A model generated the notes under the pieces. That model did no database searches, had not been told where the DNA came from, and worked only from the letters and a program-made list of their open reading frames with translations. A stretch of DNA of 64,000 nt, taken from the NCBI GenBank assembly GCA_045545295.1, contig JAZQAO010000017.1:977-64976 (forward strand), written 5' to 3'. Positions 7,847 to 40,098 of this stretch are shown here, piece by piece; position 1 is the first letter of the stretch; each line of letters begins with the position of its first letter. Source of the DNA: Clostridia bacterium. Its GTDB lineage: Bacteria > Bacillota > Clostridia > UMGS1883. The position numbers and the translations under genes are program-made.

Positions 7847-10128
7847 TTGCAAAACAGAAAATAAGCGCAATAGCAAAGGCTATAAATGTTCCCGGTAAGG
7901 AAATCGCTGCTATGCTTGGTGAAGTTGCCGGAATTACCAAAAGCTCAGCTGCTTCTCTTGATGTAGACGAAATGAGCATCGTTATGGAGTACTATACTCA
8001 GAAATTTGATGACGGTTCTACAATTGAAGAATACGTTAAAGCTTATCAGGAAAAAGTTGAAAAAGAAAAAGCTGCTGCAAAACCCAAAAAGGAAAAGAAA
8101 GCAGAGGAAGTTCTTCCTGAAATTACTGACGAGGAAATCACACAGGAAATCACTCCTCAGAAAAACCGTCGCTACGTTGACACAAGAACAAACGCTGTTG
8201 ACCTTGATGTTCAGTTGGCAAAAGAAAAAGCTGAAGAGCTTGCTCCTGAAATAAAAGACACAGAAACAACAAAACAGCGTATAAAGAAAAACAAAAACAA
8301 ACAGCAGCCACAGAAGAAGAATCAGCCTAAGCCTGAAGAAATGATTCAGAAGCCAAAAAAAGAAAAGGTTGAAAAACTTCACGTTGTTATTCCCGATACA
8401 ATCACCGTGGGCGACCTTGCACAGAAAATGAAAGTCGGTGCTACCGAAATCATCAAGCGCCTTATGCAGCTTGGCATTATGGCATCTGTGAATCAGGAAG
8501 TTGAATATGATGTAGCTGCACTTATTGCAGAAGATATGGGTGCAGATGTTGAGAGAGAAATCATCATCACAGAAGAAGACAAACTCTTTGGTGATGCTGA
8601 CGCTCCCGATGATGAAAAGGACCTTATCACCCGTCCTCCTGTTGTAGTTGTTATGGGTCACGTTGACCACGGTAAAACAAGTCTTCTTGATGCAATCCGC
8701 TCAACAAACGTTACTGCAAGCGAAGCAGGCGGTATTACACAGCACATCGGTGCTTATATGGTAAAAATCAACGACAATCCCATTGCATTTCTTGATACTC
8801 CCGGTCACGAAGCGTTCACCGCAATGCGTGCCCGCGGCGCACAGGTAACGGATATTGCAATCCTTGTTGTTGCAGCAGACGACGGTATTATGCCCCAGAC
8901 AATTGAGGCTATTAACCACGCTAAAGCTGCTGAGGTAAGTATTATCGTTGCTATTAACAAAATTGATAAAGAGGGTGCTAACCCCGACAGAGTTAAGCAG
9001 GAGCTTACAGAGCATGGTCTTGTTCCCGAAGAATGGGGCGGTGATGTTATCTGTGTTGAAGTAAGTGCAAAACAGCGTCAGAACATTGACGGACTTCTTG
9101 AAATGGTGCTTCTTACTGCGGAAATGAAGGAGCTTAAGGCTAACCCCAACCGCCGTGCAAAGGGTACTGTTATCGAGGCAAAGCTTGACAAAGGCCGCGG
9201 TCCTGTTGCAACAGTGCTTGTACAGAACGGTACACTCCGTCAGGGTGATATCATCGTTGCAGGTACTGCAGTAGGTCGTGTAAGAGCTATGCTTGACGAC
9301 AAGGGTAAGAAGATTAAAGAGGCTACTCCCTCTACACCCGTTGAGATTATCGGTCTCAGCGAAACTCCCGACGGTAACGATGTTTTCTATGCAGTTGAGG
9401 ATGAAAGAGCTGCCCGTCACGTTGTTGAGGCAAGAAAACAAAAGATTAAGGACGAAGCTAACAAGGCTAAGCAGAAGGTTAACCTTGAAGACCTCTTCAG
9501 CCAGATTCAGCAGGGCGATGTAAAAGACCTTAATATCATCGTTAAGGCTGACGTTCAGGGTAGTGTTGAGGCTGTTAAGCAGAGCCTTGAAAAGCTCTCT
9601 AACGAAGAAGTTCGTGTAAGAGTTATTCACGGTGCAGTTGGTGCTATTACAGAGAGCGACGTTACACTTGCAACTGCTTCAAACGCTATTATCGTTGGCT
9701 TTAACGTACGTCCTGACGTAGGCGGAAGAAATGCTGCCGAAATCAACAAGGTTGATATGCGTATGTACCGCGTAATTTATGATGCTATCGAAGAAATTGA
9801 AGCTGCTATGAAGGGTATGCTTGCCCCCACATTCCGTGAGGCTGTTATCGGTCATGCCGAAATCCGTCAGACCTTCAAAGTTAGCGGTGTAGGAACAATC
9901 GGTGGCTGCTATGTTACAGACGGTAAGATTCAGCGTAACTGCAGTGTTCGTATCGTTCGTGACGGTATTGTTATCCATGAAGGTGAGCTTGATTCACTTA
10001 AGCGTTTCAAGGATGACGTTAAGGAAGTTGCAAGCGGTTACGAATGCGGTATGGGCTTTGTAAGATTTAACGACATTAAAGAGGGCGACAATGTAGAGTG
10101 CTATATCATGGAAGAAGTAAAAAGATGA
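7843..10128 (+). CDS. infB: Translation initiation factor IF-2
   Basis: 761 aa with a K/E-rich N-terminal region, the G domain motifs [12 protein letters not shown] and DTPGHEAF, and an ATGA overlap with ylxQ. Confidence 0.97.
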
Positions 10129-10225
10129 TGTTAAAAATGCCCAGAGTGCAAAACGAAGGCTTAATGCGAAATTCGAAGTTCGAAATTCGAAATGAAGGTT
10201 GAAATCCTGCGGATTTCTCCTTTCC
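10127..10225 (+). repeat. Family-1 intergenic element, single-arm form, with a terminator-like hairpin
   Basis: GATGTTAAAAATGCCCAGA abuts the infB stop. It is followed by the heptad arm GCGAAAT-TCGAAGT-TCGAAAT-TCGAAAT and the hairpin GAAATCC-TGC-GGATTTC (10201-10217). Confidence 0.7.
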
Positions 10226-15588: not shown

Positions 15589-15750
15589 AAAAGTGTAAAC
15601 TACACTTTTTAAATGCGAAATTCGGAGTGCGAAGTGCGAAGTGACGGTTAATTTTTGCTGAAGCAAAAATTCTTGATTTGTAAAAAGGCTTTCTCTGTTG
15701 AGAAAACCATCCATCATTTCGAATTTCGAACTTTACATTTCGAATTAATC
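15589..15750 (+). repeat. Family-1 intergenic element, full two-arm palindromic form
   Basis: The AT hairpin AAAAAGTGTA-AAC-TACACTTTTT lies at 15589-15611. The forward GC-type arm AAATGCGAAATTCGGAGTGCGAAGTGCGAAGTGAC lies at 15611-15645. Two hairpins lie at 15650-15671 and 15687-15708. The reverse AT-type arm CCATCATTTCGAATTTCGAACTTTACATTTCGAATTA lies at 15711-15747. Confidence 0.75.
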
Positions 15751-15805: not shown

Positions 15806-16444
15806 TTGACACGAAAAGAACGTGCAGAAAAATTCTGCGAAATACTCAAAGAACTTTACCCGGAAGCAATCTGCTCACTTAACTATACAACTCCTCTCGA
15901 GCTTCTTATAGCAACACAGCTTTCTGCACAATGCACAGATGCAAGGGTGAATATAGTGACAGAAACTTTATTCAAAAAATACCCAGATGTTTCTGCCTTT
16001 GCAAGCGCATCTCAGAAAGAACTTGAAAAAGACATTCACTCAATAGGTTTCTACCATAACAAAGCAAAGAATGTAATTAACTGTTGCCGTAAAATCATTG
16101 ATAATTTTAACGGAGAAGTTCCCGACACTATGGAAGACCTGCTTACTCTTGACGGCGTAGGAAGAAAAACCGCCAACCTTGTTCTCGGAGACCTTTTCGG
16201 AAAAGGCGGTATGGTAATCGACACCCACGCAAAAAGAATTCTTTACAGAGTAGGTCTTACAAAAGAAACTGAGCCGCTGAAAGTCGAAAAAGATACAGAA
16301 AAACTCCTTCCAAGATCAGAGCACAGCGACTTCTGTCACCGACTGGTACTTCACGGAAGGGCTCTCTGTACAGCCAGAAGCCCTAAATGCACTGAATGTG
16401 CCGCTAATGAAATTTGCAAAAAAACGGAAATCAAGAATAATTAA
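15806..16444 (+). CDS. nth: Endonuclease III
   Basis: 212 aa with a TTG start and AGGAGG 8 nt upstream. It has an HhH motif (LDGVGRKTANLV) and the Fe-S cluster motif CTARSPKCTECAANEIC. Confidence 0.92.
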   Translation: MTRKERAEKFCEILKELYPEAICSLNYTTPLELLIATQLSAQCTDARVNIVTETLFKKYPDVSAFASASQKELEKDIHSIGFYHNKAKNVINCCRKIIDNFNGEVPDTMEDLLTLDGVGRKTANLVLGDLFGKGGMVIDTHAKRILYRVGLTKETEPLKVEKDTEKLLPRSEHSDFCHRLVLHGRALCTARSPKCTECAANEICKKTEIKNN

Positions 16445-21385: not shown

Positions 21386-21480
21386 CAATGCGAAATGAAG
21401 GAAGATTTTGCATTGCAAAATCCATTTTTAATTTTCCTCTGTGTATAAAGTGGTGTGTAAAAATATGTTTTTTACACACC
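21386..21480 (+). repeat. Family-1 element, contracted form, plus two hairpins (probable operon terminator)
   Basis: AATGCGAAATGAAGG is a single heptad. The hairpin GATTTTGC-ATT-GCAAAATC lies at 21403-21421 and is followed by CATTTTT. A second 12-bp stem, GGTGTGTAAAAA / TTTTTACACACC, lies at 21452-21480. Confidence 0.6.
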
Positions 21481-21501
21481 CTATTTAAAAAGGTGAACTT
21501 T

Positions 21502-23622
21502 ATGTTGGTAAAAAAGTTAAAGGAAGAACACATTCTCACAAGGGATGAGTTTAAAGAACTACTTTCAGAGAATAAATATGACGAAGAGCTTTTTAAGACT
21601 GCCGATGCGGTACGCAGAGAAATCTACGGCACCGATGTTTACATCCGCGGTCTTATTGAGTTTTCAAATTTCTGCAAAAACAACTGCTATTACTGCGGTA
21701 TAAGATGTGACAACAAAAAGGCGGAGCGTTACCGTCTTACAAAGGATGAAATTATGGAATGCTGCCGTGAGGGCTACACTCTCGGTTTCCGCACATTTGT
21801 GCTTCAGGGGGGCGAGGACCCGTATTTTACGGACGAAAGATTCTGCGATATTATAAGCACTATCAGAGGCGAATTCCCTGACTGTGCCATTACTATATCC
21901 GTTGGCGAAAGGTCTTATGAAAGCTACCTTGCCTACTTTAACGCAGGTGCAAACCGTTTTCTGTTAAGACACGAAACCGCGGAGGAAGAGCATTACAATA
22001 AGCTCCACCCTGCTGAAATGAGCCTTGAAAACCGTAAACGTTGCCTTTATGACCTGAAAAAAATCGGTTATCAGGTAGGTAGCGGATTTATGGTTGGCTC
22101 CCCATACCAGACTATGGATAATATTATTTCAGACCTGTTCTTTTTAAATGAGCTTCAGCCGGATATGATTGGAATTGGTCCGTATGTAAATCATAAAGAA
22201 ACGCCTTTTAAAGATTTTGAAAGTGGAAGTGTGGAATTAACGATACGCCTTATTTCTGTACTGCGTTTAATGTTCCCCTGCGCACTTTTACCTGCAACAA
22301 CGGCACTTGGAACACTTGCCGAGGACGGCAGAGAAAGAGGGCTTAAAGCAGGTGCAAATGTAGTTATGCCCAATCTTTCACCTCAAAGATTCAGAAAGCT
22401 TTACAGTATTTACGACAATAAAATTGCCACAGGTGAAGAAGCGGCAGAAAGTCGCAGACTCCTTGAAAAGCGTGTAGAGAATGCAGGCTATAAGGTAGTG
22501 ACTGCAATTGGAAATGTGAAAAAACCTGCAGGTAACAAATGCCTTGTGGCTATGAGTGGTGGTGTTGATTCATCGGTTGCGGCACATCTGATGAAAGAAA
22601 AAGGTTACGACTGCGTTGGTGCTACAATGAAGCTTCTGGGGGCACAAATCCCCATTGATGAAGAACACGCCTGCTGCAGTCTTGAAGATATAGAAGATGC
22701 AAAAAAAGTGTGCGACGCACTTTCTATGGAGCATTTTGTGTACGATTTCTCCCCTGATTTCTGTGAAAAAGTTGTAGACAAATTTGTTTCTGCTTACGAA
22801 AACGGTGCAACGCCTAACCCGTGTATAGAGTGTAACCGTCACCTTAAGTTTGAAAGATTGTTTAAAGAGGCGGAGGGTCTTGGGTGCAACTTTATTGCAA
22901 CGGGACACTATGCACGTATTGAAAAGGAAAATGGCAGATACGTATTAAAAAAAGCCCTTGACCCGTCAAAGGACCAGAGCTATGTTCTTTATTCTCTTAC
23001 TAAGGAACAGCTTGCAAGAACTCTTTTCCCCCTTGGCAATATGACAAAAGAGGAAGCACGTGCTATTGCAGAAAAGCACAATCTTGTAAATGCCCACAAA
23101 AAGGACAGTCAAGATATATGCTTTGTTAAAGACGAAGATTATACGGACTTTATCCGCCGTTATACAGGAAAAGATTATCCTGAGGGAAATTTTATTGATA
23201 AAGACGGAAATATTCTCGGCACACACAAAGGAATTATTTCCTATACTGTAGGTCAGCGAAAAGGTCTCGGACTTGCCTTACCTGCCCCCCTTTATGTATG
23301 CGATATAGATACGGATAAAAACGCAGTTGTCCTTTGCCCCCACGAGGATTTATTTTCAAGTGAATTAATAGCAAATGATATTAACCTTACCGCAGTTGAC
23401 GATTTATATACGCCTATGCGTGTTAAAGCGAAAATCCGCTACCGTCACACACCTGCTGATGCAACGGTAGTGCAGATTGACGAAGATACAATCCGCGTTA
23501 CCTTTGACGAGCCGCAACGTGCAATAACCAAAGGTCAGGCAGTGGTGCTATATGACGGGGATACTGTTATCGGTGGCGGTACTATAATAAGTGCAGAATT
23601 CGGAATACGGAATGCGGAGTGA
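21502..23622 (+). CDS. Fusion ORF: [FeFe]-hydrogenase maturase HydE-like radical SAM domain + tRNA 2-thiouridine(34) synthase MnmA domain
   Basis: I prefer the ATG at 21502. The track ORF start at 21388 lies in repeat sequence. Residues 1-338 align by eye with HydE (IEFSNFCKNNCYYCGIR, LLRHETA, PATTALGT). Residues 339-706 are MnmA (LVAMSGGVDSSVAA, NPCIECNRHLKF, ATGHYAR). There is no stop between the two parts. Confidence 0.8.
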   Translation: MLVKKLKEEHILTRDEFKELLSENKYDEELFKTADAVRREIYGTDVYIRGLIEFSNFCKNNCYYCGIRCDNKKAERYRLTKDEIMECCREGYTLGFRTFVLQGGEDPYFTDERFCDIISTIRGEFPDCAITISVGERSYESYLAYFNAGANRFLLRHETAEEEHYNKLHPAEMSLENRKRCLYDLKKIGYQVGSGFMVGSPYQTMDNIISDLFFLNELQPDMIGIGPYVNHKETPFKDFESGSVELTIRLISVLRLMFPCALLPATTALGTLAEDGRERGLKAGANVVMPNLSPQRFRKLYSIYDNKIATGEEAAESRRLLEKRVENAGYKVVTAIGNVKKPAGNKCLVAMSGGVDSSVAAHLMKEKGYDCVGATMKLLGAQIPIDEEHACCSLEDIEDAKKVCDALSMEHFVYDFSPDFCEKVVDKFVSAYENGATPNPCIECNRHLKFERLFKEAEGLGCNFIATGHYARIEKENGRYVLKKALDPSKDQSYVLYSLTKEQLARTLFPLGNMTKEEARAIAEKHNLVNAHKKDSQDICFVKDEDYTDFIRRYTGKDYPEGNFIDKDGNILGTHKGIISYTVGQRKGLGLALPAPLYVCDIDTDKNAVVLCPHEDLFSSELIANDINLTAVDDLYTPMRVKAKIRYRHTPADATVVQIDEDTIRVTFDEPQRAITKGQAVVLYDGDTVIGGGTIISAEFGIRNAE

Positions 23623-23662
23623 CAAAAAAGGAAATCAGCTTTTAATGCTGATTTCCTTTTTT
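23596..23662 (+). terminator. Family-1 arm plus a bidirectional intrinsic terminator
   Basis: The arm is GAATTCGGAAT-ACGGAAT-GCGGAGT-GAC. It is followed by AAAAAAGGAAATCAGC-TTTTAAT-GCTGATTTCCTTTTTT. The element lies between convergent genes. Confidence 0.75.
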
Positions 23663-32461: not shown

Positions 32462-33088
32462 TCATCTCATCATTACGTGATTTATTATGTAGGGGTTATA
32501 TGCCTTCTCATCACCTATGGTAGTTGCTGAGCCGTGTCCGGGATAAACAACTATGTCATCACTAAAGTTATCTATAAGATACTTAAGCGATTTTAACTCC
32601 GTCCTGAGGTCGCCTCTGTCAAACCTGCCTATCGAGCCGGCAAACAGTAAATCTCCACTGAAAAGGTACTCTCCGCACTCGATACACACACCTCCCGCAC
32701 TGTGCCCCGGAGTGTGGTGGATTTTAAGCTTATTGGTACCAAGTTCAATAACATCACCGCTGTCATAATAAAAATCGGCCTTACAATGCTTTACTTTTGC
32801 ATTTGAAAATTCAGCAAGATTCTTAATATTGTCATCAAGCATTATCTCATCATCTTTATGCACATAAACCTTTGCACCTGTTTTTTCTGCAATATCCGAC
32901 ACTGCACCGATATGGTCAAAATGACCGTGTGTAAGAAGAATTTTTATTATTTTACAATTTTCTTTTTCTGCTGCTGCTATTATTTTTTCATATTCGTCAC
33001 CGGGGTCAATGACAATTGCCTCGCCACCCTCTGCAAGAAGGTAGCAATTTACCTCTAATTCCCCTACTACTATAGTCTGTAATTTCAT
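32462..33088 (-). CDS. MBL-fold metallo-hydrolase (glyoxalase II-like)
   Basis: 208 aa with the THGHFDH motif and the later HTPGHS and GH motifs. Confidence 0.85.
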   Translation of the reverse strand: MKLQTIVVGELEVNCYLLAEGGEAIVIDPGDEYEKIIAAAEKENCKIIKILLTHGHFDHIGAVSDIAEKTGAKVYVHKDDEIMLDDNIKNLAEFSNAKVKHCKADFYYDSGDVIELGTNKLKIHHTPGHSAGGVCIECGEYLFSGDLLFAGSIGRFDRGDLRTELKSLKYLIDNFSDDIVVYPGHGSATTIGDEKAYNPYIINHVMMR

Positions 33089-33106: not shown

Positions 33107-33354
33107 GTATAGGAAAAAATGCGGTTTGAACGGACAATTCGTATTATGAAAGTTCGAAATGTGAAGTCCGAAATTCGAAATGATGGAAGATTTTCTCTGC
33201 AGAGAAAATCCTTTTTAACCGTATAGGAAACTGCGTAATTCAATCGCGAACAACATTTAGCAAAAATCTACCGCCATTCCGCACTTCGCACTCCGAATTC
33301 CGCATTTAATCAATCGTCTTTTTGCTGTCCGGACGTTTTTAACATCCCCTTTAT
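33107..33354 (-). repeat. Family-1 composite element filling the relA-MBL spacer; it also contains a family-2 fragment
   Basis: The AT-type arm lies at 33152-33186. The hairpin GATTTTCTCTGCAGAGAAAATC lies at 33189-33210. A family-2 3' half lies at 33217-33262. The GC-type arm (reverse on the + strand) lies at 33271-33307. GGGGATGTTAAAAAC abuts the relA stop. Confidence 0.75.
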
Positions 33355-35523
33355 TTACTGCACTGTTCTCTTAATCTCATACACACCCGGTACTCTGTGG
33401 AGTTTTCTTATAATCGAATCAATCTGCTCCTTACTTGAAACCTCAATAGTAATGTCGATAAGCGCTGTTTTATCCTTAAGCGCTCTCGCATTTGTAGCAA
33501 GAAGATTGAGTTTTTCTTCTGACACAACGCCGATAACATCTGCAAGCACACCGTTACGATTTGTGCAGGCAATACTAAGTTCTGCGTTAAACGAAGTTGA
33601 AATACCCTCGAGCCAGTCACATTCTATCATACGGCTGCGCATATCCTCGGTAAGGCTTTCCGGCTGGATATTTATACAGTCACATCTGTGGACACTGACA
33701 CCTCTTCCTCGTGTGATAAATCCTATAATTTCGTCTCCAGGTACAGGATTACAACATTTTGAAAGCCTTACAAGGCAGTTGTCAACACCCTTAACCTCAA
33801 TACCTAAGTTTGTCTTATTTGGTTTTACTTTGCTCTGTTTGACAACAAATTCCGGAGGAAGATTTTCCTTATTCTCCGACTGATAGCTGTCTCTGAGTCT
33901 TGCTATAACCTTTGCTGCAGTAATGCCACCGAAACCAATTGCAGCATACATTTCTTCAACACCGGCAAAACCATAACGCTTAAGCATGGGATCAAGATAT
34001 TTTGGTTTAAAGTAATCTGTCTGATTAAGACCAAGTCTTCTGAATTCTGCTTCAACGGAATTTCTTCCGCGTTCAATGTTAGCCTCGCGGTTTTCTTTTT
34101 TGAACCATGAATTAATCTTACTTCTGGCTGTACTTGTTTTGACAATTTTCAGCCAGTCCATACTGGGGCCTTTGTTTGCTCCGGATGTAATGACCTCGAC
34201 AATGTCACCGTTCTGCAGTTTATAATCAAGTGGCACAATTTTTGAATTTGCCTTTGCACCCGTCATCTTATAACCGACAGCAGAATGGATGTAGAATGCA
34301 AAGTCAATAGGTGTAGACCCGGCAGGAAGCGCAATAACATCGCCCTTGGGAGTGAACACGTATACCTCATCTGCAAACATATCTATTTTAAGTGTGCGCA
34401 TAAAGTCTTCCGGATCAACAGAGTCATTCTGTATCTCTAAAAGCTTGTTCACCCAGTCAAGATTATCTGTACTGCCTGCTTTACCCTCTTTATATTTCCA
34501 ATGCGCCGCAACACCACGCTCAGCAACACGGTGCATATCCCATGTTCTTATCTGGATTTCAAAGGGTTGACCGTCAGGACCGATTACCGTTGTATGAAGG
34601 GATTGATACATATTGGGCTTGGGCATAGCTATATAGTCCTTAAAACGCCCCGGAATAGGTTTATACTCCTCATGAACAATACCTAAGACTGCGTAACATT
34701 CCGCTACTGTGTCAACAATGATTCTGACTGCAAAAAGGTCATAAATTTCATCAAGGGTCTTGTTCTGATTGTACATTTTTCTGAATATGCTGAATATATG
34801 CTTTGCTCTTGCAGAAATATGGCACTCAATATTCATTGCTTCCATCTTGTCGGCAATAACATTTCTTACGTTCTGAACGTATGCATCTCTTTCAGACTGC
34901 TTCTGTGAAAGTCCGTCTACAATTTCGTAATATGCCACGCTGTCAAGATATTTAAGAGACAAATCCTCAAGCTCAATTTTTATTTTTGAAATACCCAGAC
35001 GGTACGCAAGCGGAGCATACACATCAAGGGTTTCCTTTGCTTTTTCAAGCTGTTTTTCAGGTTTCATGTGCTTAAGCGTACGCATATTGTGAAGTCTGTC
35101 TGCGAGCTTGATAAGGACAACACGGATATCCTCTGCCATAGCAAAGAACATCTTACGAAGGTTTTCTATATGAGCTTCTTCCTTTGAAATAACCTTGATT
35201 TTGTCAAGCTTTGTAACGCCCTCAACCAAAAGTGCGACCTGCTCACCAAATTCTTCCTTTATTTCATCATAGCCAACCTCTGTATCCTCTATAACATCGT
35301 GCAAAAGTCCTGCAACTATAGCTTCAGCATCAAGCTCCATATCTGCAAGTATGCACGCAACCTCATAAGGATGAACAAAATATGGTTCACCGCTGTGGCG
35401 GAGCTGATTTCCGTGCTTTTCCTTGCAAAGCTCGTATGCTTTTCTGATAAGCGCTTCATCCTCTGATGCATTTTTATTATATTTTCTAACTTTATCCATT
35501 AAGGATTCAAACGCACAAGCCAT
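33355..35523 (-). CDS. relA: Bifunctional (p)ppGpp synthetase/hydrolase RelA/SpoT
   Basis: 722 aa with an HD domain (HDVIEDT), a synthetase region (YQSLHTTV), and TGS and ACT regions. Confidence 0.95.
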   Translation of the reverse strand: MACAFESLMDKVRKYNKNASEDEALIRKAYELCKEKHGNQLRHSGEPYFVHPYEVACILADMELDAEAIVAGLLHDVIEDTEVGYDEIKEEFGEQVALLVEGVTKLDKIKVISKEEAHIENLRKMFFAMAEDIRVVLIKLADRLHNMRTLKHMKPEKQLEKAKETLDVYAPLAYRLGISKIKIELEDLSLKYLDSVAYYEIVDGLSQKQSERDAYVQNVRNVIADKMEAMNIECHISARAKHIFSIFRKMYNQNKTLDEIYDLFAVRIIVDTVAECYAVLGIVHEEYKPIPGRFKDYIAMPKPNMYQSLHTTVIGPDGQPFEIQIRTWDMHRVAERGVAAHWKYKEGKAGSTDNLDWVNKLLEIQNDSVDPEDFMRTLKIDMFADEVYVFTPKGDVIALPAGSTPIDFAFYIHSAVGYKMTGAKANSKIVPLDYKLQNGDIVEVITSGANKGPSMDWLKIVKTSTARSKINSWFKKENREANIERGRNSVEAEFRRLGLNQTDYFKPKYLDPMLKRYGFAGVEEMYAAIGFGGITAAKVIARLRDSYQSENKENLPPEFVVKQSKVKPNKTNLGIEVKGVDNCLVRLSKCCNPVPGDEIIGFITRGRGVSVHRCDCINIQPESLTEDMRSRMIECDWLEGISTSFNAELSIACTNRNGVLADVIGVVSEEKLNLLATNARALKDKTALIDITIEVSSKEQIDSIIRKLHRVPGVYEIKRTVQ

Positions 35524-38782: not shown

Positions 38783-39159
38783 TAATTCGAAATGTGAAGT
38801 TCGAAATTCGAAATGATGGACGATTTTCTCTTCAGAGAAAATCTTTTTTTCAAATTTGTCTTCATTTAAATGTTCACTTCGCATTCCGCACTCCGAATTC
38901 CGCATTTATTTTAACATTCCGAATCAGAGGGATAGGAAAAAATGTTCAGAACGGACGAACTGAACCCGCAGGGGGTACCCGAAGGCGTATGTGGATACGC
39001 CGAGAGGTGAAGTTCGTTCGTAGCAAAGGTCATAATTTTTGAAATTCGTGAAACGAATTTCTACCACAAACAAGAAAAGCAGTGTTGTTTCCTCACTTAT
39101 TGAAAGGAACTCTTGTTTCATCTTGACCTTTGCGGTCTGGGCATTTTTAACATCCCGAA
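38783..39159 (-). repeat. Family-1 composite element(s), the largest copy, with an extra GC-rich multi-hairpin insert
   Basis: The AT arm lies at 38783-38820. The hairpin GATTTTCTCTTCAGAGAAAATC plus T7 lies at 38822-38850. The GC arm (reverse on the + strand) lies at 38872-38907. TTTTAACATTCCGAAT lies at 38910-38925 and TTTTTAACATCCCGAAT at 39144-39160. The unique insert lies at about 38950-39030. Confidence 0.75.
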
Positions 39160-40098
39160 TTAGTTACATTCTGCTGTCAAAGGACCAGCCAGCTCCTTAA
39201 GATAGAAGAGCTTACCGGGCATTGTGGGAATGAATGAAGATGTAATGCTCTTATCAGGACCATAGTGGAGAGTCATAAGGAAGCTCATACCCTGCCAGCC
39301 CATGCCTCTGCCAAGAGCACCGTCACATCCACCGATGATTGTATCAGCCTGAAGGAAGAGACCGGGGCCTACTGTGTTAGCACGGCAAGGAACAAGTGTA
39401 GTACGGCTCTTAAAGCTTGTAATAGCGTTCTGTTCGATAGTCATAGGATTAAGCTTTGCACCAATTCTGTAGCACTGCTTCTTCCATTCTTCAACTGTAT
39501 CAAATTCATCTGCAAAGTGGGGTTCCCAGAATGCGATGTGACAAGCACGACCAATACCGAATACGAGAACAAGCTTTGCACCCTCTGCCTTAAGGGCAGC
39601 AATCTTCTCGGGATATGTGGGAAGGTTTTCCTTTGAAGCAAAGTTACGCTGACTGGGAGGAACTGTGTTCTCACCAAGCTTATCAAAGAAAGCCTGCTTC
39701 ATGCTGTATTCAAATGATGCGGGGTCTGTGTTGGGAAGTGTGTTACCCTCTGCGTCAGACCATTCGTCCATATTGAATGTGTAAACGTGGTCACACTTTA
39801 TATTCCATTCCTTAAGGAAGTAAACTGCCCATTTGTACATACCCATAGGTCCTACGGGAAGAATCATAGCGAGCTTTTCGCCTCTTTCACGAGCGTTCTT
39901 GATCTGAAGAGCGATTTCGTGTCCCATAAATGTGTCAAACTCAAAAATGTTGTCACATTCAACGGGAGTAAAGTCCTTATGCCAGAAATCTTCACGGGTT
40001 ACACCCTTTTCACAACATTCGTCAATTTTCTTGAGGTCCCAACCCTTGGGGAAAAAGCTTTCGCACATACTGCCTTCAACTGTACTTAAAAAATCCAT
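39160..40098 (-). CDS. NagB/AgaI-superfamily sugar-phosphate deaminase/isomerase-like protein with an N-terminal extension
   Basis: 312 aa. NMDEW and [13 protein letters not shown] resemble the glucosamine-6-P deaminase LDEY and G.G.DGH.AFNEP motifs. Confidence 0.6.

Follow-up and report, generated by a model that had tools for sequence, protein, structure and literature searches.

The intergenic element downstream of relA

In the stretch of DNA analysed here (the window), which comprises 64,000 nt of contig JAZQAO010000017.1 (positions 977 to 64,976) from a Clostridia bacterium of the lineage UMGS1883 [GenBank assembly GCA_045545295.1], relA and the gene that follows it on the minus strand, encoding a 208-aa protein, are separated by an intergenic element of 248 nt. 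The element belongs to a dispersed family of palindromic repeats built from 7-nt units (heptads), and its features and those of related loci in the window are listed in Table 1. Read on the strand that is sense for both genes, positions 33107-33354 open with a box, GGGGATGTTAAAAACGTCCGGA, followed by a linker and a 28-nt arm. The first half of a hairpin, GATTTTTGC..., comes next, and after it a fragment of another repeat and a second hairpin. The inverted arm reads ATTTCGA ATTTCGG ACTTCAC ATTTCGA, and a second box ending in ...GTCCGTTCAAACCGCATTTTTTCCTATAC leads into the ribosome binding site (RBS) and ATG of the next gene. The locus is a hybrid, in which a two-hairpin heptad element is enclosed by the termini of a separate repeat, designated Element 2. 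About 10 loci in the genome, including this one, have this arrangement, with a heptad composite enclosed by Element 2 remnants of which only both termini are left.

The heptad family

The sequence CGRARTNCGRART has 17 matches in the window where 0.17 would be expected, and an iterated nhmmer search over the assembly recovered 134 modules at 80 loci. Each module consists of an arm of K-C-G-R-A-R-T heptads, a GAWGG linker and an A/T-rich hairpin of 9-10 bp. Arms of four units (28 nt) predominate (88 of 128) within a range of 2-6, which supports the heptad arms of a preliminary description of the window, made from the sequence alone, in which the arm was drawn as 1-4 heptads of the type NCGRAAT/NCGRAGT. 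The commonest units, TCGAAAT, GCGAAAT and TCGAAGT, contain no GG or GGG tract. An unbroken array of ~15 GCGGAAT/ACGGAAT units, as against the usual four, is present in one relative (G021:C73:14383-14486).

Convergent pairs of modules were found at 45 of the 80 loci. These short, multicopy, non-coding elements have inverted terminal repeats, in the form of the 28-nt arms, as miniature inverted-repeat transposable elements (MITEs) do, and they form three groups according to spacing. Compact elements (13 copies, ~98 nt) have one shared hairpin, mostly GATTTTCGC-N4-GCGAAAATC. Two-hairpin elements (22 copies, ~135 nt) are composed of a G-richer B module, with the hairpin ATTTTTGC..., facing an A module, with the arm TCGAAAT GTRAART TCGAAAT TCGAAAT and the hairpin GATTTTCTC...; T- and A-runs are located between hairpins B and A, and the boundaries are sharp when the 22 copies are aligned. 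The remaining 10 pairs have longer inserts, and forms with nested cargo exist. At three loci (C24:106651-106780, C48:28815-28945 and C48:48711-48840) a near-identical insert of ~130 nt, TACAGTATACTCCGTGAATGGAGCTGAAAGCGAACATAAACGG..., is found in the A module, where it separates the arm from the GATGG linker. This insert looks structured, and only chance-level matches to it were found in Rfam.

The genes on either side of the 80 loci are co-directional in 67 cases, convergent in 9 and divergent in 4, and the corresponding figures for the 725 background spacers of >50 nt are 461, 120 and 144. The first arm is a median of 30 nt past the upstream stop codon (≤14 nt in 31 of 67), and the last arm is frequently 12-26 nt short of the next start codon, leaving room for an RBS only. 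No Rfam family reached its gathering score in the window, searches of Rfam with the element and nine other copies gave only chance-level matches at E ≤ 1, and a scan of IMG/VR with the arm-linker pattern gave no match. Two phage-like contigs of the assembly, C5 (25.9 kb) and C59 (11.5 kb), together 1.8% of its length, encode a major head protein, a ParB-like protein and an HNH endonuclease, and carry 9 of the 80 loci, a density ~6 times that of the genome as a whole. The heptad repeats may be transported by the phage, or shared repeats may serve as a marker that links phage and host.

Gain, loss and turnover at orthologous sites

The gap between relA and the downstream gene is 12-19 nt in 14 relatives, comprising the stop codon, RBS and ATG, compared with the 248-nt element found here. 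Low-coverage DNA sequencing runs included one contig from sheep gut, belonging to a relative, with an empty relA site, and contigs of another sample with the filled form. In the related genome G012 (locus L035, G012:C2), the stop-to-RBS spacer at the same position contains an unrelated 180-nt palindrome with the ends GGCCGAGAGGAG...CTCCTCTCGGCC, and palindromic elements seem to land preferentially at this junction.

Orthologous spacers were also compared in three related metagenome-assembled genomes (MAGs), for which the aligned blocks beside the spacers are 71-93% identical at the nucleotide level. Certain sites are empty where elements of 167, 265 or 421 nt are present here, and other sites carry a solo arm in one species and a full composite in the other. 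Two sites have a heptad composite in one species and Element 2 in the other, with exactly the same boundaries. Collapsed copies, in which the outer heptads of both arms are joined directly, were also detected. Three such elements (C4:2415-2450, C42:7293-7338 and L015:430-470), in which outer A-arm heptads are fused to outer B′-arm heptads, have no inner heptads or hairpins and resemble either palindromes that have undergone deletion or footprints. The empty sites, the collapsed copies and the presence of a different repeat at identical boundaries indicate that the elements are gained and lost.

Within the genus, a three-heptad pattern was found in 13 of 25 genomes (0-119 matches each), and it was absent from all 16 genomes examined from other families of the order. 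A look-up by exact protein returned no strain variants on record. The comparison for presence/absence that was proposed in the preliminary description, made here with related MAGs, thus recovered empty sites, collapsed copies and swaps, and the MITE-like origin that it listed as one option is well supported by the empty relA sites, the differences between MAGs and the patchy distribution in the genus. One precise insertion (L003, compared with C36:84289) has AAAAAAG on both sides, and the other pairs of filled and empty sites are too diverged to read.

Replication slippage, which has reportedly been proposed for bacterial heptamer microsatellites, would produce simple-sequence repeats in place rather than by the copying of whole units. 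Variation in unit number from 2 to 6 and the 15-unit array in G021 are consistent with such a process, as is the overabundance of heptanucleotide repeats that has been noted for many bacteria (PMC4679880). However, the imperfect second heptad GTRAART is retained in the A arm, with the same linker and hairpin, at >20 loci and in other species; four units are strongly preferred; and whole composites with the same architecture are present or absent at orthologous sites. Slippage is largely refuted by these conserved non-repetitive parts and is a highly improbable origin for the family.

Mobilization as REPIN/REP-type repeats by a single-copy RAYT-like transposase of the Y1 (HUH) type was also considered. 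An open reading frame (ORF) for a 289-aa Y1_Tnp protein is present at C24:134536-135405 (Y1 match at 134932-135270, 70 bits), and similar genes were found in 7 of 9 heptad-rich members of the genus compared with about 4-5 of 16 heptad-poor members. However, the repeats on either side of this gene are GGGGAC(A/T)GTCCCC palindromes and not heptad arms, and the nearest heptad element is >4 kb away. Mobilization by this route was rejected because the Y1 gene has palindromes of its own, and we regard it as improbable. No transposase-bearing element with heptad ends was found in a check limited to the Y1 family. The palindromes beside the Y1 gene, TTTGGGGAC(A/T)GTCCCCAAA, are dispersed in the genome in ~19 copies. 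Palindromes on both sides of a RAYT gene are the classic RAYT-REP arrangement, and the Y1 gene and its palindromes may constitute a REP/RAYT system in Clostridia.

A gene-bearing copy with a PF05635 gene

One copy of the element, which separates aspS from the next gene (C36:87641-88130) and has the heptads of the family, includes a gene. It is composed of an arm, a GATTTTCGC hairpin, an RBS with an ORF of 121 aa (C36:87697-88062), a near-identical hairpin and an inverted arm. The predicted protein matches PF05635 (23S_rRNA_IVP) with 97 bits, and its gene is the only PF05635 gene in the assembly. Avd, a protein of diversity-generating retroelements, is a homologue of this family (PMC10053308). 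The possibility, raised in the preliminary description, that the repeats are fragments of a known insertion sequence or MITE with a transposase elsewhere was not borne out, the sole gene-bearing copy carrying this gene and not a transposase. The GATTTTCGC hairpin is common to the cassette and 8 of the 13 compact elements, and one compact element 2.7 kb from the cassette has an identical loop. A tblastn search at E ≤ 10 detected no PF05635 pseudogene remnants in other copies. Candidate longer units, in which arms seemed to enclose other genes, were rejected, as they are separate elements flanking ordinary host genes. The gene-bearing copy suggests a source for the heptad repeats.

A sample of 52 PF05635 loci from 26 relatives, each taken as the gene with 300-nt flanks (46 kb), was compared with control loci of the same genomes (95 kb). 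The PF05635 loci contain 12 arrays of period 7 and one of period 5, and none of periods 6, 8, 9 or 10; the control loci contain no arrays at any period. KCGRAAT arms are found on the orthologous cassette in G021 and on a cassette in G009. Five proteins in the sample are ≥63% identical to the 121-aa protein, and heptad arrays are located beside the genes for all five, four being of a related type (KCGRAAT or GCARAAT) and one being TKGAAAA. The more distant proteins are accompanied by other motifs. TGCARAA and TKGAAAA heptads are rare outside their own cassettes in their genomes, and the amplification to 80 loci is therefore special to the KCGRAAT lineage. No paper linking PF05635 genes to heptad arrays was found in the literature, and one survey places PF05635 among proteins associated with CRISPR-like repeat arrays (PMC10910872).

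The closest known elements are the ORF-bearing intervening sequences (IVS) in the 23S rRNA genes of Coxiella burnetii and Leptospira. The C. burnetii IVS is regarded as a selfish element, with an S23p ORF and a 28-bp terminal stem that is cut by RNase III, and the distribution of rRNA IVS is sporadic (PMC4990558). The gene-bearing copy likewise has 28-nt arms, as stem-forming terminal inverted repeats around a PF05635/S23p-type four-helix-bundle ORF, and the copies in the window are ORF-less. Unlike the IVS, which lie in a 23S rRNA helix, all 80 loci are between protein-coding genes or at their ends (the rRNA genes of the MAG were not examined), the arms are made of heptads and accompanied by extra small hairpins, and ~80 loci have no ORF.

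Orientation, pairing and folding

The preliminary description proposed that the elements act at the RNA level and have the same orientation as the flanking genes. Genome-wide, orientation relative to genes is non-random for the two-hairpin form. Hairpin B (TTTTTG) is on the sense strand in 22 cases and antisense in 8, and hairpin A (TTTCT) is sense in 6 and antisense in 20 (Fisher p = 4e-4). The B arm is on the sense strand in 15 two-hairpin elements and on the opposite strand in 2, and for all composites with a spacer of ≥45 nt the G-richer arm is sense in 21 and antisense in 5. Compact-type hairpins show no polarity (15:12). Replication-strand bias was rejected as a cause: in all seven informative composites, where the gene strand and the leading strand predicted by GC skew are in conflict, orientation follows the gene (7:0), and the polarity therefore relates to transcription and not to replication.

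A terminator-like hairpin after the arm had also been described, and a short hairpin does follow most arms. The stems are weak, contain 2-3 G-C pairs and have energies of about -8 kcal/mol. A simple terminator scan flags only hairpin A, on the antisense strand, at 33189, 38822 and 15708 in the window, and the 9-nt tails contain 4.8 T when antisense-facing and 3.7 T when sense-facing (p = 0.013). Selection may have removed sense-facing copies of hairpin A inside operons, which would be a simple alternative explanation for the polarity.

Positions of the two arms that would oppose each other in a stem comprise 790 Watson-Crick pairs, 110 G·U, 78 A·C and 171 other combinations over all tandem composites. 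In the sense RNA of the two-hairpin class, G·U exceeds A·C (54 versus 26, p = 0.002), and in the compact class the numbers are similar (29 versus 25). The earlier statement that most arm differences are G·U is hence too strong, though an excess of G·U is significant in the two-hairpin class only; for window copies the Watson-Crick/G·U/A·C/other counts are 22/5/2/4 and 21/4/2/6. The sense strand is predicted to fold better in 13 of 17 two-hairpin copies, by a mean of 5.8 kcal/mol (mean minimum free energy -41.7 kcal/mol, compared with -36.0 kcal/mol for the opposite strand), and no difference between strands was seen for the compact class. For positions 33107-33354 the values are -63.9 kcal/mol (z = -2.05) for the sense strand and -48.5 kcal/mol (z = -0.22) for the other.

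Arms pair with their own partners at 0.82 of positions compared with 0.84-0.85 when partners are swapped between loci (permutation P(≥obs) about 1), and arm identity is 0.70 with the own partner and 0.77 with partners from other loci. Covariation therefore lends no support to a selected long RNA stem, and the arms are complementary because all of them are versions of one heptad and not through compensatory change. A few master sequences gave rise to the two-hairpin copies, and the asymmetry that these share therefore does not represent 17 independent events.

These results bear on the possibility that the two-hairpin form is a selected RNA-level module, serving as an intercistronic signal for processing, stability or attenuation, in which the duplex and hairpins are maintained and spread is secondary. 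Orientation with transcription, the polarity of hairpin types, the G·U excess, the greater stability of the sense strand, including that of the copy downstream of relA, and the T-runs after both hairpins all fit such a module. However, own arms pair no better than swapped arms, 'other' mismatches are as common as G·U, the compact class is symmetric, the hairpins are weak, the few master types make the 17 elements non-independent, and relatives have no element at the same operon junctions. The RNA-level proposal thus has some support from the orientation of the two-hairpin form and the folding of its sense strand, and none from covariation in the arm helix or from the compact class, and we consider a module of this kind unlikely.

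Origin of the elements

We favour, with a probability of about 0.6, the interpretation that the heptad elements are lineage-specific palindromic non-coding repeats, gained and lost over time, that are gene-less derivatives of an IVS-like PF05635 cassette. The ancestor would have been a cassette consisting of an arm, a hairpin, a gene for a PF05635 (Avd-like four-helix-bundle) protein, a second hairpin and an inverted arm, and deletion or recombination between its two near-identical hairpins would give rise to the compact form. The elements occupy the narrow gap that separates a stop codon from the RBS of the following gene, and in most cases the two genes are co-directional. Constraints imposed by transcription of the host operon probably account for the polarity of the two-hairpin form, with the more terminator-like hairpin A facing against the flow of transcription; the polarity may also be inherited from a gene-bearing ancestor that needed to be read in the sense direction. 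On read-through transcripts the arms would be expected to form an imperfect duplex of ~28 bp, by analogy the kind of stem that RNase III cuts in rRNA IVS, and a role of the element in termination or RNA processing is plausible.

Several observations weigh against this interpretation. There is only one gene-bearing copy in the genome, and its gene could therefore be cargo that landed inside an element. In the genus, the presence of PF05635 and the number of KCGRAAT arrays do not go together. Neither a transposase nor an excision product was found, and the only candidate for a target-site duplication is the AAAAAAG of the single precise insertion. Genuine selection on RNA would likewise be consistent with the excess of G·U and the better folding of the sense strand in the two-hairpin class. 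RNA runs included none for infB, and a metatranscriptome matching a gene region of C48 (EF-Tu or EF-G) had no usable coverage of the heptad element. In addition, the assembly is a 79%-complete MAG (2.02 Mb in 60 contigs, 40.8% G+C), and the genes are our own ORF-based calls.

A more specific and tentative extension of the cassette interpretation is that the PF05635 protein might be the specific partner of the heptad arrays that flank its gene, recognizing about four 7-nt units of single-stranded nucleic acid. The cassette would then be the autonomous form of a mobile or self-maintaining element that is widespread, and the ~80 gene-less elements would be non-autonomous progeny served in trans by the single gene that is left. 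We regard this as doubtful; if true, it would account at once for the heptamer repeats of bacteria, their tendency to have four units, and rRNA intervening sequences.

Other loci in the window

Related sequence is present at all six loci of the window where it had been reported (Table 1). In the three full copies a G-rich arm is opposite an inverted A-rich arm, and at every window locus the G-rich arm is in the sense orientation relative to the neighbouring gene(s), both as described previously. For the copies in the window, the preliminary description was largely correct. The composite at 15615-15743 is upstream of a plus-strand gene at 15806, and the box at 10127-10145 begins on the final base of the infB stop codon.

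The region 23596-23662 had been listed among the related loci, but here the heptads overlap the end of mnmA and the hairpin, at 23630-23656 on the 3′ side of the arm, is an ordinary terminator. The arm lengthens the C-terminus of the mnmA product by ~9 residues (AEFGIRNAE) and also supplies the stop codon. In the window, a radical-SAM (HydE-like) gene and mnmA constitute one open frame of 744 aa (21388-23622). The two genes are separate in a MAG from goat rectum, with a spacer of ~130 nt that includes a heptad module.

Table 1. Heptad elements, Element 2 sequences and their parts in the window.
Feature	Position	Strand	Details
Intergenic element	33107-33354		Flanked by relA (33355-35523, -) and the gene for a 208-aa protein (32462-33088, -)
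Box1, GATGTTAAAAACGTCCGGA on - strand	33328-33346	-	5′ terminus of Element 2, 8 nt past relA stop codon
B arm, GCGGAAT TCGGAGT GCGAAGT GCGGAAT	33276-33303	- (sense)	Four heptads
Hairpin B, 5′ half, GATTTTTGCTAAA on - strand	33256-33268	-	Other half displaced by nested fragment
Nested 3′ fragment of third repeat family, ...GCRAATTCCTATA...	33219-33254	-	
Hairpin A, GATTTTCTC-TGCA-GAGAAAATC, then CTTTTTAA	33189-33210	+	Terminator-like on +, i.e. antisense to the genes
A arm, TCGAAAT GTGAAGT CCGAAAT TCGAAAT, then GATGG	33154-33181	+	In sense RNA, the 3′ pyrimidine-rich arm
Box2-like terminus of Element 2, TATAGGAAAAAATGCGGTTTGAACGGACAA	33108-33137	+	Followed by RBS and start codon of the 208-aa gene
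Two-hairpin composite, hairpin B degenerate	38787-38903	-	A arm 38787-38814 (+), hairpin A 38822-38843, B arm 38876-38903 (-)
Truncated box1	38908-38921		After the composite at 38787-38903
Complete Element 2	38931-39154	-	Box2 38931-38952, box1 39136-39154; starts 5 nt past the stop codon of gene 39160-40098 (-)
Two-hairpin composite	15615-15743	+	B arm 15615-15642, hairpin B 15650-15671, hairpin A 15687-15708, A′ arm 15716-15743
Box1 and solo module	10127-10217	+	Box1 10127-10145, arm 10166-10193, GAAGG, hairpin 10201-10217
Remnant module	21390-21422	+	One heptad, GAAGG, hairpin GATTTTGCATTGCAAAATC
Solo G-rich arm, TCGGAAT ACGGAAT GCGGAGT	23600-23620	+	Last codons and stop codon of mnmA

Element 2 and a third repeat family

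A box abutting stop codons, GATGTTAAAAATG, had been described as part of the heptad elements. Its position was corroborated, but the box does not belong to the heptad family and is an end of Element 2, a separate and strongly structured repeat. The form GATGTTAAAAATGCCCAGA is present in 55 copies at ≤3 mismatches. A gene on the same strand precedes 44 of the 49 intergenic copies, 34 of the 49 are located from -8 to +12 nt relative to a same-strand stop codon, and in seven of these the TAA within the box serves as the stop codon. Element 2 is ~200-230 nt in length, with ≥21 complete copies that include the one in the window, and its start lies 2-12 nt past stop codons. The box forms its 5′ terminus, and its other end, ...GTTCTGAACATTTTTTCCTATCCC, is an imperfect inverted copy of the box. 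Beyond the three window sites with Element 2 or its box (38931-39154, 10127-10145 and 33328-33346), the assembly has >50 more. The alifold consensus of Element 2 includes 26 pairs with changes on both sides, and the fold is better when the repeat is read antisense to the upstream gene (-60 versus -39 kcal/mol; 82 G·U versus 12 A·C). No Rfam family was matched by Element 2. At some loci the first 12-13 nt of the box are fused directly to the B arm.

A third repeat family (...CGTGCCGCTTC...GCRAATTCCTATA..., ~100 core matches in the genome) is nested in heptad composites, at 33219-33254 in the window and at C42:14.9k, 25.6k and 28.5k, C48:7.9k and C24:26.2k. Away from the relA locus it immediately follows the T-run that belongs to hairpin B, as though terminator-like T-tracts were its target.

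Comparison with other repeats and implications

The nearest functional analogy is with the REP, BIME and REPIN sequences of Proteobacteria, which are abundant extragenic palindromes forming mosaics of a few modules at gene ends or between co-transcribed genes. These are strain-variable, and effects on mRNA stability and on termination have been ascribed to them. Unlike REP and REPIN sequences, the elements described here have arms that are heptad arrays, are not associated with a RAYT and occur in a different host phylum.

Two other types of heptamer array have been described. TAACTGA direct repeats in Beggiatoaceae, Cyanobacteria and Bacteroidetes are intergenic, have 2-6 units, are found near start codons and are patchily distributed (MacGregor 2015, PMC4679880). 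They differ in motif from the heptads found here, are mostly direct, and have no partner arm or hairpin. GGGNATC arrays in Xanthomonas and Nostoc show a preference for four units, which has been explained by the formation of G-quadruplexes (Rehm et al. 2015, PMC4692102). Arrays of this type are over-represented between aligned ORFs and under-represented between divergent ones, and their purine-rich strand is found <50 bp past stop codons on the coding strand and before start codons on the non-coding strand (PMC4692102). The heptads described here share this positional rule and the four-unit preference. However, most units (TCGAAAT) have no G-tract, so that the four G-tracts of a G-quadruplex are not present, and the arrays are joined to conserved hairpins in palindromic elements. 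The preference for four units thus does not need G-quadruplex potential.

To our knowledge, the excess of 7-nt repeats in bacteria and the small ORFs of IVS have been known for ~30 years without a mechanism. This genome is a compact test case, as it has one gene-bearing cassette, ~80 gene-less copies, relatives with empty sites and a clear polarity rule. Heptad elements split tight operon junctions, such as those between relA and its downstream gene and between infB and rbfA, and can lengthen coding regions, as at the C-terminus of mnmA. Annotators of gut Clostridia and operon predictors should therefore expect them.

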